From contig QCBH01000003.1 of NCBI GenBank assembly GCA_003281685.1, positions 48,234-112,233 on the forward strand: a stretch of 64,000 nucleotides of DNA. Direction: 5' to 3'. The stretch's first letter is position 1. Each line of letters opens with the position of its first letter. The notes under the pieces were generated by a model that searched no databases, was not told the origin of the DNA, and saw only the letters and a list, made by a program, of their open reading frames with translations. This document shows, in pieces, positions 5,426 through 63,688 of the stretch. The translations under genes were made by a program, and so were the position numbers. The stretch comes from Prochlorococcus sp. AG-347-E23 (lineage in GTDB: Bacteria; Cyanobacteriota; Cyanobacteriia; PCC-6307; Cyanobiaceae).

Positions 5426-5905
5426 ATGGCTGAGGTTTTTTCCTTTTTTAATAATTCAGTTCTTTTTTGGAGCTTATTATCCTGTTTACTAGCTCAATTT
5501 TTTAAAATTGTATTCAATTTCTTTTCAACTGGAGAGATAAGATTTGGAATCATGTTCGAGACTGGTGGTATGCCTTCAAGTCATTCCGCCTTAATAACTG
5601 GTGCTACATCTGGCATAGGTTATGAATTGGGATTTGATAGCTCAATATTCGCATTATCAGTTGCTGTAGCACTAATAGTTATGTATGACGCTAGTGGTGT
5701 TCGAAAATCAGCTGGGATTCAAGCTGCAGAAATAAATAAACTATCAAAAAAACTAGATCCGCAGTCTGAAATACTTTTAAAAGAAACCCTAGGTCATACA
5801 AAAATTGAGGTCATGGTGGGGAGTTTCTTAGGACCATTAATCACTTTGACTGGAATGTTTTTTTTAGGTTCTCCTCTCAAAATATTTAATTTGTTAATAA
5901 ATTAA
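5426..5905 (+). CDS. Divergent PAP2 family (DUF212-type) membrane protein
   Basis: GGMPSSHSA, VMYDASGVR and LGHT motifs. Confidence 0.88.
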   Translation: MAEVFSFFNNSVLFWSLLSCLLAQFFKIVFNFFSTGEIRFGIMFETGGMPSSHSALITGATSGIGYELGFDSSIFALSVAVALIVMYDASGVRKSAGIQAAEINKLSKKLDPQSEILLKETLGHTKIEVMVGSFLGPLITLTGMFFLGSPLKIFNLLIN

Positions 5906-61018: not shown

Positions 61019-61092
61019 CGGGGCGTGGCGCAGCTTGGTAGCGCGGGTGCTTTGGGAGCACTAGGTCGCAGGTTCGAATCCTGTCGCCCCGA
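61019..61092 (+). tRNA. tRNA-Pro (TGG), encoded CCA to 61095
   Basis: CGGGGCGTGGCGCAGCTTGGTAGCGC-GGGTGC-TTTGGGA-GCACT...GGTTCGAATCC...GCCCCGA-CCA. Confidence 0.97.
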
Positions 61093-61101
61093 CCATTTAA
61101 T

Positions 61102-61129
61102 AGCAAGGGATCCAAGCCCTTGCTTTTTT
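61102..61129 (+). terminator. Intrinsic terminator after tRNA-Pro
   Basis: AGCAAGGG-ATCCAAG-CCCTTGCT followed by a T-run. Confidence 0.8.
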
Positions 61130-61156
61130 ATTTCTAGAGTGTCTCAAATATACAAA

Positions 61157-61203
61157 TAGAGCTAAGAATAGAGCTAGATTCTAATTAAAACTGATTAGCT
61201 CTA
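61157..61203. repeat. Arm-type repeat array at the tRNA-proximal inner end
   Basis: TAGAGCTA at 61157 and 61169 (12-bp period), inverted copy TAGCTCTA at 61196-61203. Confidence 0.75.
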
Positions 61204-61362
61204 AATTTGGTGCTCTATGTTTTATATATTTTATGAAAAACAAATCAAAGCCTAAATAATCAGAATGGGTCGTGTTTAATGCCATGATGGATCAAAACAA
61301 AAGTATCCTCAATCGAGGAACTTACGTTAAAAATGGCAAGTTAAATTTTTTATTATATTTTT

Positions 61363-62742
61363 TTACCAAAATTTAAATATGTTTTCTTTTTCTACGATAT
61401 TCCCACAACTATTTGTATTTTCAGCTTTTCCTGGATTTTCGCTATTAAGAGATCTTAAAATATCCACGATTGAGATCGCAAAATTTAGGTTCTGAGCTCT
61501 ACCTTCGTCTCCAGGCAAACTCCAAGTATTAACTCCAACTACCTCACCATTACTATTAACTAAAGGTCCACCACTATTACCAGGGCTTATAGCTGCATCT
61601 GTTTGTATGAGTGTAACGTAATATGGGACAACATCTTCTAAATCACTCGATGGTTGTCTTACAGCACTTACAATCCCTCTTGTAACTGTTCCTGCCAGGC
61701 CAAGAGGAGATCCAAGAGCAATTACATTTTGACCAGGTCTTGGATATTTACTAAAACAAAGTGGGAGAGCTTTTGAGTTTTTAATATTATTTGCTTGTAT
61801 TAATGCGAAATCAAGCTTTGAGTCCACATAAATAACTTCACCTTGATCTTTCAGACCATCATCTCCAGAGATAGTGAATTCTTTATCGCCCCCGGCTACT
61901 ACGTGCATATTAGTAACAATCAGTCCTTCATTATTAATAAAAAAACCACTCCCTAATCCTGAATCTCCCTCTAATTTGACTACTGAAGGGAGAGTTATAG
62001 ATGCTATTTCCTCTACATCAAGTTTTTTTGAACTAATCGAGGCTCGAGCTATTTCATATTTAGGTTTGTTCCATTCTTTTGTATCTTTCTGGAATAATAG
62101 TTTTAAATTTTTTATTGTCTCTTCTCCAATAGGAATAAATTTATCTGCTAAACCACTATTTGGAATAGCCTTAATTTGCAAATTAATTGATTCATTCTCA
62201 CCCATATTCTTAATTCTTTTTGCAAATCCAGAGGGAAACTGAAATTCACCTCTACTTCCTCTTAATCTAAACCTCTTTTCTCCAACAAATATCTCTATAA
62301 AACCTGGAAAATCATAATATTTAGCACTCTCATAAGTACATGTCCAAAAACCACAACCACCCCATGTCAATATTCTTCCTTCTAATTTATTGGTATTCCA
62401 TTTCGTGACATAACTTTTAACTGCTCCAGTACTAAAATCAGAAACATAATCTCTATCAAAAATTGTTAATTCATAAGAATTTCTAAGAGATGATTTGTAT
62501 TTTATAATTTTGGACCAAGCAATCTTAGGATTTTTCTTTTTCCAATCAACATCTTTTTCATATTCAATCACTTCTAAACCTGTATCCTCATCAATAACTA
62601 CATTTCGCAGATATTTCTCAGTACATCTTTTTTTATTTTTGTGAACAGGAGAATCACAATTAATCTTTACTGCTAATACTTCTGGAATATAAAAAGAACC
62701 TAACCCCAAAAGAATTACTATAGATATAAATTTTCTCATCAA
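61363..62742 (-). CDS. Secreted trypsin-like (S1C/HtrA-like, no PDZ) serine protease with N-terminal extension
   Basis: Signal peptide; triad motifs VTNMHVV, DFALI, GNSGGPL; TVTRGIVSA and IQTDAAI. Confidence 0.92.
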   Translation of the reverse strand: MMRKFISIVILLGLGSFYIPEVLAVKINCDSPVHKNKKRCTEKYLRNVVIDEDTGLEVIEYEKDVDWKKKNPKIAWSKIIKYKSSLRNSYELTIFDRDYVSDFSTGAVKSYVTKWNTNKLEGRILTWGGCGFWTCTYESAKYYDFPGFIEIFVGEKRFRLRGSRGEFQFPSGFAKRIKNMGENESINLQIKAIPNSGLADKFIPIGEETIKNLKLLFQKDTKEWNKPKYEIARASISSKKLDVEEIASITLPSVVKLEGDSGLGSGFFINNEGLIVTNMHVVAGGDKEFTISGDDGLKDQGEVIYVDSKLDFALIQANNIKNSKALPLCFSKYPRPGQNVIALGSPLGLAGTVTRGIVSAVRQPSSDLEDVVPYYVTLIQTDAAISPGNSGGPLVNSNGEVVGVNTWSLPGDEGRAQNLNFAISIVDILRSLNSENPGKAENTNSCGNIVEKENIFKFW

Positions 62743-62838
62743 TTGGATTTTTCTTCCTATTGATATTATCTGTATTTAATTTAATTGTCTCTCTTATGTT
62801 AAGAGGAGATTAATCAGACAAAAAGTCAATTTAGAAAA

Positions 62839-62884
62839 TAGAGCTAGGAGTAGAGCTAGGAGATAATTAACTCTAATTAAAACT
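62839..62884. repeat. Arm-type repeat array at the distal inner end
   Basis: TAGAGCTAGGAG twice (62839-62862), near-inverted TAACTCTA (62868-62875), TCTAATTAAAACT shared with 61180-61192. Confidence 0.75.
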
Positions 62885-62983
62885 AATCAAAACCATCAAA
62901 ATCTTGTCTCAAATCACCTACAAAACCTAGTATCCCTTGAGAAAATAACTAGAGTCTTACATATTTCTCAAAAGTTAGCACTA

Positions 62984-63030
62984 GTGCTTTGGGAGCACTA
63001 GGTCGCAGGTTCGAATCCTGTCGCCCCGAC
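62984..63030 (+). repeat. Displaced 3' half of tRNA-Pro (att site)
   Basis: 47-bp identity to 61047-61093, starting at the anticodon stem. Confidence 0.95.
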
Positions 63031-63052
63031 TCTACTAAATCCAAGTTATACT

Positions 63053-63077
63053 AGCGAGTTTCCCGACTCGCTTTTTT
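63053..63077 (+). terminator. Intrinsic terminator after the partial tRNA-Pro
   Basis: AGCGAGT-TTCCCG-ACTCGCT followed by a T-run. Confidence 0.75.
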
Positions 63078-63104
63078 ATTTCTCATTTGTCTTAAAATCT
63101 CTGC

Positions 63105-63164
63105 GGGCGAGGAATGGGCGAGGATTTGTATAGCTTTGGAATACTTTGGAGGTTAGCTCGCCCG
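63105..63164. repeat. Second arm-type repeat array (different word) beyond the distal att
   Basis: GGGCGAGGA at 63105 and 63116 (11-bp period), inverted GCTCGCCCG at 63156-63164. Confidence 0.7.
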
Positions 63165-63170
63165 TTATAA

Positions 63171-63419
63171 CTAGAAATAAGACCTAAAGATACTAGTCTT
63201 TTTCCAACCCTCATCTAGTAATTGTTTATATTCTTTTCTTGCAGCCTCAACAGTTTCTACCCTGCTACCTTTCATAACTGGTTTACTACTTCTCTTGTAA
63301 ACACAACCATAGGAAATCATCATTGCATCAATACTAGGACTAGGTTTTGATACATCCTCAAATGGTTCAAATACTTTTATCCTATTTCTTTCATTATTTA
63401 TGAGAATAAATCTCTCCAT
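63171..63419 (-). CDS. DUF1651-like small protein
   Basis: Start placed at MERFIL (TAATG overlap with the upstream stop); C-terminal ARKEYKQLLDEGWKK pattern recalled for DUF1651. Confidence 0.6.
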   Translation of the reverse strand: MERFILINNERNRIKVFEPFEDVSKPSPSIDAMMISYGCVYKRSSKPVMKGSRVETVEAARKEYKQLLDEGWKKTSIFRSYF

Positions 63420-63688
63420 TACTTGCCTTTTGATAAAAGATAATTTAAAAAAATACCTCCCGAAACTAATAAACATCCCATAGCAACAAATCCAAGTAAA
63501 TCTATTAATGATTTATCAGTATTTATTTTTAGAAAAGTTAAAGCAAAAGCTATTGGAGGGAATAATAATATTGCTTTTGGAATGAGCGCCTGATTCCATT
63601 TCTTTATATTTGTATCTTCTTCGTTTAGCTCTTGATACATCTTTTCCAGTTTTTTTCTTTCTTCTTCCATTAAATAAGCAATAAGCAA
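63419..63688 (-). CDS. Hypothetical 2-TM membrane protein
   Basis: Charged N-terminus (probable start MEEER at 63673) then two hydrophobic helices; stop overlaps the next ATG. Confidence 0.65.
   Translation of the reverse strand: MLIAYLMEEERKKLEKMYQELNEEDTNIKKWNQALIPKAILLFPPIAFALTFLKINTDKSLIDLLGFVAMGCLLVSGGIFLNYLLSKGK

Follow-up and report, generated by a model that had tools for sequence, protein, structure and literature searches.

Words at both ends of an integrase-less cassette in a Prochlorococcus tRNA-Pro array as probable arm-type sites of a tyrosine integrase lineage

Introduction

Behind a partial copy of tRNA-Pro(UGG) in Prochlorococcus sp. AG-347-E23, at positions 63031-63170 of the window (the whole 64-kb stretch of DNA analyzed here), stand a terminator hairpin, a short GC-rich word in tandem, and an inverted copy of the same word. 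Why should a terminator follow half a tRNA, and what reads the word? The locus recalls tycheposons, which target seven tRNAs including tRNA-Pro(UGG), are flanked by partial tRNAs, and push earlier integrations into the island as later ones stack up (Hackl et al., bioRxiv 10.1101/2020.12.28.424599). According to the same paper, active elements account for 3.6% of island DNA and the remainder lacks clear boundaries; the word “arm” does not occur in it, nor are arm sites described. No link between tycheposons and arm-type sites was found in the literature examined. The question bears on how genes are gained and shuffled in Prochlorococcus islands without plasmids, conjugation, or competence.

Our analysis leads us to regard 63031-63170 as probably the left (P'-type) att arm of E2, a cassette of 2.9 kb that has no integrase and derives from a tycheposon-type element targeting the 3' half of tRNA-Pro(UGG); the words of E2 are putative arm sites for the N-terminal domain (N-domain) of a P0002-type integrase.

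Results

Six tRNA-Pro cores form an array on one strand

Contig C3, which contains the window, is part of a genome of 1.5 Mb and 31% G+C, and the closest matches all come from Prochlorococcus; the window's features are collected in Table 1. This genome has six copies of the tRNA-Pro 3' core, all of them on C3 and in one orientation. Exact copies lie at window-equivalent positions 61055 (the intact gene), 62992, 65933, and 68696, and two outer copies are imperfect, at 71479 with one mismatch and at 76545 with six; the partial tRNAs beyond the third core accordingly lie near 68.7, 71.5, and 76.5 kb. Across the array, Rfam returned nothing but tRNA matches. Insertion at tRNA-Pro(UGG), with six 3' copies and a full or partial tRNA beside the inserted DNA, agrees with the tycheposon pattern. 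Within the 47-bp core, the inverted half-sites GTGCT-TTGGG-AGCAC coincide with the dyad of the anticodon stem-loop and are likely to be the core-type sites and the region of crossover.

Table 1. Positions of the features of cassette E2 and its surroundings
Feature	Position	Strand	Basis or remark
Intact tRNA-Pro(UGG)	61019..61095	+	ARAGORN; Rfam tRNA, 64.7 bits
Shared att core of the whole array (3' 47 bases of tRNA-Pro)	61047-61093	+	Six same-strand 3' copies on the contig
Cassette E1	61096-62983		Between the intact tRNA-Pro and the second core
Second att core, partial tRNA-Pro	62984..63030	+	Exact repeat of the tRNA 3' part; junction of cassettes E1 and E2
Cassette E2	63031 to window-equivalent 65924	+	2.9 kb; whole cassette 98.8% identical in AG-347-L02
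Terminator hairpin and T-run	63053..63082	+	Terminator scan; also in the L165 attP-like junction and most E2-type left arms
GTCTTAAA box	63089..63096	+	One of the GTCTCA/GAGACT boxes in both arms of every cassette type
Two direct copies of GGGCGAGGA, 11-bp period	63105..63124	+	Proposed arm-type integrase sites
Scaffold TTTGTATAGCTTTGGAATACTTTGGAGG, TTTG motif phased at 10 bp	63125..63152	+	Arm comparison
Inverted third word copy GCTCGCCCG (CGGGCGAGC on the minus strand)	63156..63164	-	
First cargo gene, DUF1651-like small protein (~80-100 aa)	63171..63476	-	ORF list; weak Pfam DUF1651 match
E2 right arm	L001 5757-5924		Pseudo-core remnant GAGGCACTAGGTCGG; GGGCGACAA 5776-5784; GGGCGAGGA 5787-5795; GAGACTCA; GTCTCAAAT
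Third att core	L001 5925-5971 (window-equivalent 65925-65971)		3' of the E2 right arm; third tRNA-Pro fragment

Neighboring segments carry words of their own: ATAGAGCTA in E1, GGGTAGCT in E3, and TCACGCRAAA on the left side of E4. Segment E4 (L001 8734-11487) is a hybrid, with TCACGCRAAA as its left word and CTGATGTCAAT as its right word, and mismatched ends of this kind may mark fusions of two cassettes.

The left arm of E2 combines a terminator with three copies of one word

All the elements that a sequence-only reading of this DNA had described between 63031 and 63170 are present. The terminator scan finds the hairpin AGCGAGTTTCCCGACTCGCT at 63053-63072, followed by TTTTTATTTC, and its twin lies at 61102-61124 behind the intact tRNA-Pro. 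Both ends, behind the intact and behind the half tRNA, share GCTTTTTTATTTCT-N5-GTCT(C/T)AAA. Only at 63105 and 63116 does GGGCGAGG occur in the 64-kb window, against a mean of 0.11 occurrences after shuffling, with 1 of 100 shuffles reaching two. The inverted copy stands 40 bp further in than the direct pair and forms the inner edge of the conserved left arm, since homology to other loci stops at about 63163-63174; it recurs in 21 of 31 left-type loci. Between them, the scaffold is kept across related arms that have different words, and from its sequence we consider it a possible site for Xis or an accessory factor.

The GTCTCA/GAGACT boxes sit at about -95 and -20 in right arms (in E2, at L001 5841-5848 and 5907-5915) and at about +55 in left arms. 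Their placement is independent of word type and integrase family, and they may bind an accessory or host factor.

A matching right arm lies beyond the window

The sequence-only reading had proposed that a second element end, with its own word, would have a partner array before another tRNA-Pro fragment beyond 64 kb. This is where we found it: GGGCGACAA at window-equivalent 65776 and GGGCGAGGA at 65787, 155 bp before the third core and just past the window. Apart from the one in the left arm, the genome has no tandem GGGCGA array but GGGCGACAA-AC-GGGCGAGGA (65776-65795). The partner array and the further att copy are thereby in place, and the association of the word with att sites elsewhere is described below.

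The cargo between the arms consists of small ORFs only, namely, the DUF1651-like gene, a PsbN-like gene with a His-rich tail (L001 4816-5037, minus strand), and several unknowns. Among the E2 ORFs there is no recombinase or integrase and no xis, and a replication module (primase, polymerase, helicase) is absent as well. The same DUF1651-like gene adjoins the left arm in an integrase-bearing metagenome contig (L165, ORF 2462-2749). Such a gene often stands directly beside a left arm, as it does in L165, MIT 9302, and G032, and the island holds three very similar copies of about 80 aa, at 63171-63476 (minus strand), L001 8911-9159 (plus strand), and L001 12691-12933 (plus strand). We considered this protein as a reader of the word and rejected it, as the three copies are nearly alike by eye while the neighboring words differ. 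A cargo protein of E3 (L001 7291-7587, minus strand) has a cytochrome b559-like segment.

When E2 was compared by blastn with 31 Prochlorococcus loci, the whole cassette was found only in AG-347-L02, and its right half in one more genome. At all the other loci, only the arms (about 62976-63172 and 65760-65970) show similarity, around interiors unrelated to that of E2; the left arm stops just past the inverted word, and the right arm starts just before the first right-hand word. Arms that are 85 to 97% identical thus surround unrelated cargo in dozens of genomes. The neighbors of E2 in AG-347-L02 differ from those in the window's genome, and locus L044 has an extra 1.6-kb cassette exactly between E2 and E3. 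Cassettes therefore enter and leave at internal cores, and the order of the stack is no reliable clock. The claim that E2 is an older element pushed outward by the later 1.9-kb insertion cannot be established for this reason, given that relatives gain and lose cassettes at internal att copies too.

Neither a PF00589 profile search nor tblastn found a P0002-type integrase in the window's genome. The profile search returned nothing but a recombinase of 389 aa that nearly all relatives share and that is not of this type. A tycheposon-type integrase missed by that search was found by tblastn at C1:235927-237273 (minus strand); it is likewise not of the P0002 type, is intact, and is 61% identical to one beside tRNA-Thr(GGU) in strain SB. 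Segment E5 looks like it holds an integrase remnant, with a 56-aa ORF starting MGH (L001 12404-12574, minus strand; window-equivalent 72404-72574) that resembles the C-terminal end of a tyrosine recombinase, and weak tblastn matches to integrases over L001 12464-12688 (C3:120697-120921).

The word recurs at fixed distances from tRNA-Pro cores

We scanned species-representative genomes and metagenomes with the 17-mer GGGCGAGGATTTGTATA, which is common to both E2 arms, and required of true hits a second GGGCGA copy 11 nt upstream. Matches in unrelated high-GC organisms had neither a second word copy nor a tRNA core and are due to chance; viral contigs scanned with the 17-mer gave a single chance match. 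Tandem words occur 72 times elsewhere, and 45 of these occurrences have a tRNA-Pro core within range, all on the same strand, and none has an opposite-strand core. At these 45 independent Prochlorococcus genome and metagenome loci, the word lies at -114 to -116 or at -70 from the core (left type) or at +154/+155 (right type). The offset in the window, -115, is shared by 20 other loci, with variants at -116, -114, and -70, and the cargo between the arms usually differs. No integrase stands beside the E2-type right arms of the 31 genome loci.

The E1 word ATAGAGCTA is also found at fixed offsets elsewhere. No cognate integrase could be linked to it; the sole integrase nearby (L353) carries GTGGGAAAA.

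Both ends of a segment tend to share a word

Whether such pairing is general was assessed in 58 inter-core segments from nine tRNA-Pro arrays, drawn from the window's genome, MIT 9302, MIT 9107, MIT 9322, SB, and three single-cell genomes. Tandem words with a period of 11 to 12 bp stand at +25 to +75 after a core and at -104 to -112 or -144 to -151 before the next. With a shared exact tandem 7-mer at both ends as the strict criterion, the ends match in 28 of the 58 segments, compared with 1.8% of random pairs and, over 10,000 permutations, a mean of 1.5 matches and a maximum of 8. A looser criterion gives 29 of 58 (random pairs, 3.4%); over both criteria, shuffling predicts 1.5 to 2.4 matches, with a permutation maximum of 8 to 9. 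Words match across a core, between neighboring segments, in only 2 of 49 cases. More than 20 different words occur in the 58 segments. Segments with strictly matched ends hold 38% of the bases, and half of the segments have no strictly matched words. In MIT 9302 (1662239-1713241; L103/L135/L136), 18 same-strand tRNA-Pro cores lie within 51 kb.

Integrase-bearing relatives carry the same arms

Contig L165 has an Xis-like helix-turn-helix (HTH) gene followed by the gene of a 433-aa tyrosine recombinase, P0002. An array GGGCGACAAAC-GGGCGAGGA-TTTGTATA begins 19 bp from the P0002 start codon, and it is followed by GTCTCAAAT, the tRNA-Pro core, a terminator, GTCTTAAAA, two word copies, an inverted copy, and the DUF1651-like gene. 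L165 is thus an attP-like junction of an integrase-bearing E2-type element, and L231 is alike. Both word-bearing arms surround one core in L165, L277, L288, and L291, so that repeated arm words unlike the core sequence flank the core on both sides, as in lambda-type att sites. The terminator is part of this junction, in keeping with the earlier reasoning that it belongs to the element's own arm.

An integrase is encoded in the relatives L165, L231, and L275. In L275, an 85% identical relative, P0003, stands beside a Prim-Pol/PriCT_2/AAA_25 gene, and a Prim-Pol/AAA_25 replication gene is a tycheposon hallmark (Hackl et al., bioRxiv 10.1101/2020.12.28.424599). Relatives of P0002 come from the protein database and metagenome contigs, and none was found in genome contigs; the links between integrases and words derive from short metagenome contigs.

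A second family, P0001 (425 aa, from MIT 9302), is only about 25% identical to P0002. Its integrase genes always lie on the opposite strand, 154 to 196 bp before a partial tRNA-Pro, and its words, TCCGTAGA or TCCGTGGA, occur in the left arm and as a palindrome beside the int start, which indicates that the layout is shared by autonomous elements. No integrase of this family has GGGCGAGGA as its own word. The integrases of MIT 9302 and AG-436-C05 do lie near E2-type words and were considered as candidates, but each is part of the segment before and has a different word; GGGCGAGGA stands in the arm of the segment that comes next. A foreign left arm is frequent in P0001-family segments that bear an integrase and may reflect fusions. 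Upstream of int, the right arms of this family (L106-L116) carry tandem TGCAGTCTYR repeats with a 10-bp period; these are absent from the left arms and are candidate excisionase sites.

The start codon of int lies inside a mimic of the core in the tRNA anticodon stem, reading GGTGCT-CATATA-ACACTAGGTCGC in P0006 compared with GGTGCT-TTGGG-AGCACTAGGTCGC in the real core. Mimic sites are found beside the int start in L285, L282, and L165 and also, as the pseudo-core remnant of E2, at L001 5757-5775 (window-equivalent 65757-65775). All 14 integrase-less E2-type right arms examined retain the right half of the mimic, and their homology ends within about 15 bp to the left of it, at no fewer than four different junctions. 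The mimic may be an operator or a site of deletions made by the integrase.

The word follows the N-terminal domain of the integrase

We recovered 12 integrases of the P0002 family together with their upstream DNA and took the first 95 residues as the N-domain. P0002, P0004, and P0006 adjoin GGGCGACAAAC-GGGCGAGGA; P0008 and P0014 adjoin GGGCGATC; and P0003, P0005, P0007, and P0013 adjoin TAGCGATTA; while P0012, P0009, and P0019 have TGAGCGAG, TGAGCGATC, and GGGCCCTC, respectively. Close relatives with different words and the unrelated P0001 family with TCCGTAGA or TCCGTGGA all use the tRNA-Pro core, as anticipated by the idea that distinct integrases share one core.

Among the 12 integrases, the word tracks the N-domain and not overall identity. 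For P0002 and P0003, which have different words, identity is 90% outside the N-domain and 66% inside; for P0002 and P0006, which have the same word, it is 53% outside and 84% inside. Only two substantive columns of the whole alignment, positions 31 and 32, are constant among the five GGGCGA readers and differ from them in each of the four TAGCGATTA readers: the former have H-R and the latter Q-S/A. In AlphaFold models (pLDDT 84 to 85), the two residues fall in the turn that joins strands one and two, and the P0002-type N-domain is predicted to present E-H-R-G-K at the tip of this beta-hairpin. The modeled domain comprises a helix (9-22), three strands (26-31, 34-40, and 46-54), and a helix (57-75), ahead of an Xer/Cre-like body. 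Foldseek matched the whole model to Xer and Cre recombinases only; with the isolated N-domain, it returned no PDB match at E<0.001 and none significant to solved arm-binding domains, and Pfam found no arm-binding family in the integrase. On its topology, the domain may be an arm-binding fold.

Identity stays near 90% for the Xis-like protein and a 53-aa neighbor even where elements differ in their words, and both proteins more likely read the conserved TTTGTATA scaffold than the words. The correlation between word and domain suggests that the specificity for arm words resides in the integrase N-domain, and the covariation across the 12 integrases lends support to the notion that each integrase reads its own arm “barcode.”

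Other readings of the arm

The words of E2 are most likely arm-type sites for the N-domain of one heterobivalent tyrosine integrase lineage, that of P0002, a judgment made from sequence comparison. Their reader could instead be a different protein, for instance, an excisionase, a repressor, or an initiator of replication acting on iterons. Tandem 11-bp repeats are typical of Xis sites and iterons too, and an HTH protein is encoded beside int. This reading is nonetheless very improbable, as the Xis-like and 53-aa proteins barely change between elements whose words differ while the integrase N-domain changes with the word, and the words stand at both ends beside att and not near a replication gene. 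That the DNA from 63031 onward is the original chromosomal flank, with the native terminator of the tRNA and repeats arisen by chance, is refuted. A terminator directly 3' of the tRNA end would be expected there, but four more tRNA-Pro fragments follow downstream, the same arm stands behind the core in the integrase-bearing junction of L165, and the word, whose count is far above chance, keeps fixed offsets in 45 loci.

A more serious competitor, which we still hold to be unlikely, is that the arm is a dead scar, its words having once been integrase sites and E2 being an immobile remnant that survives by its youth alone and whose matched ends now serve no purpose. A cognate integrase is missing from the window's genome, the outer att copies have decayed to one and six mismatches, and degenerated elements are known from islands (Hackl et al., bioRxiv 10.1101/2020.12.28.424599). 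Against this stand the arms that stay 85 to 97% identical around unrelated cargo in dozens of genomes, the four or more junctions, each of which ends no more than about 15 bp from the outer edge of the arm, the nearly identical cassette between other neighbors in AG-347-L02, and the cassette-sized insertion or deletion exactly at the cores in L044. Both arms are regularly spared, which is unlike random decay. We therefore think it most likely that the region is a set of arm-type sites from an integrase-less tycheposon derivative, and we infer that an integrase binds to them.

Discussion

How integration would proceed

The attP of an E2-type element would consist of the right arm (two words and the GAGACT/GTCTCA boxes), the tRNA core, the left arm, and the cargo, in this order, the left arm comprising terminator, box, two words spaced by one helical turn, and inverted word. 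Integration would rebuild the tRNA gene with the 3' half and the terminator of the element and displace the old 3' half, so that the left arm would bring a replacement terminator for the tRNA. A terminator behind half a tRNA would be explained by such rebuilding. In lambda, the N-domain of Int links the arm sites with the catalytic domains bound at the core, and by analogy the N-domain would here bridge the arm words to catalytic domains on the core. The catalytic part would act on the shared tRNA core, which other lineages would use with other words; with one core and lineage-specific words, each stacked cassette would be addressed by its own enzyme. E2 itself has lost its int and xis genes. 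Given this loss and the lack of a matching integrase in the genome, it would move only if a matching element entered the cell, and it is at most mobilizable in trans.

Comparison with known systems

Like the P1, P2, and P'1-3 sites of lambda, and as in Tn916, HP1, L5, and P2, the E2 family has short repeated words that flank the core and differ from it. The resemblance to heterobivalent integrase systems extends to the distance of the words from the crossover (50 to 150 bp), the extra N-domain of the integrase, and the adjacent Xis-like gene. Lambda-type systems differ in that here more than 20 word variants serve one core site, and the word and the N-domain are exchanged as a module between otherwise nearly identical enzymes. 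The modeled N-domain also has a leading helix that solved arm-binding domains do not have, and Foldseek does not match it to them; its binding to the words is proposed from the covariation described above.

With tycheposons E2 shares the tRNA-Pro(UGG) target and the partial tRNA flanks, and the cognate elements have a tyrosine integrase, an excisionase, and a Prim-Pol helicase. Unlike tycheposons, E2 is without any hallmark gene, having neither an integrase nor a replication gene. It fits the definition of CIMEs (cis-mobilizable elements), which derive from the integrative and conjugative elements of Streptococcus thermophilus, lack an integrase, end in att sites like those of a related autonomous element, accrete in tandem at one site, and are potentially mobilizable in trans. 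E2 has both arms and cores and no int or xis, and its autonomous relative in L165 has identical arm words. Unlike CIMEs, however, the cassettes here are very small (0.7 to 5 kb), many orthogonal specificities meet at one site, and mobilization is putative, suggested indirectly by the different neighbors of E2 in AG-347-L02 and by the cassette-sized difference at the cores in L044. Integron arrays likewise present a row of small, mostly promoter-poor cassettes with recombination sites between them and an order that varies among relatives, but the junctions here are double-stranded tRNA 3' fragments with lambda-type arms rather than folded attC sites, and there is neither IntI nor attI. E2 was accordingly rejected as an integron cassette, its junctions being tRNA fragments without attC and with no intI-like gene near the array.

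Implications for tRNA-Pro islands

Much of the tRNA-Pro island resolves into discrete cassettes, each with a complete pair of recombination arms. An arm word can be assigned to a particular integrase N-domain, so that island segments carry what appear to be enzyme-specific address labels. By this rule cassettes can be delimited, and one can predict the integrase that would be able to move a given cassette. The integrases also form a natural set of recombinases with a shared core site and differing arm specificities, which should be useful for studying how the specificity of heterobivalent integrases evolves.

As a speculation that we consider possible but hardly probable, tRNA-Pro islands might serve as an integron-like store of cassettes built from lambda-type att sites, with dozens of orthogonal pairs of N-domain and arm word, from which visiting tycheposons excise and reinsert matching integrase-less cassettes in trans. 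The core mimic at the int start might then be where rearrangements made by the integrase remove int and fuse a complete arm to new cargo.

A further arrangement was seen in MIT 9302, where TAGCGATTA is the left word of a 14.9-kb integrase-bearing segment and the right word of the segment after it, as though a larger element had an integrase-core-arm junction inside it.
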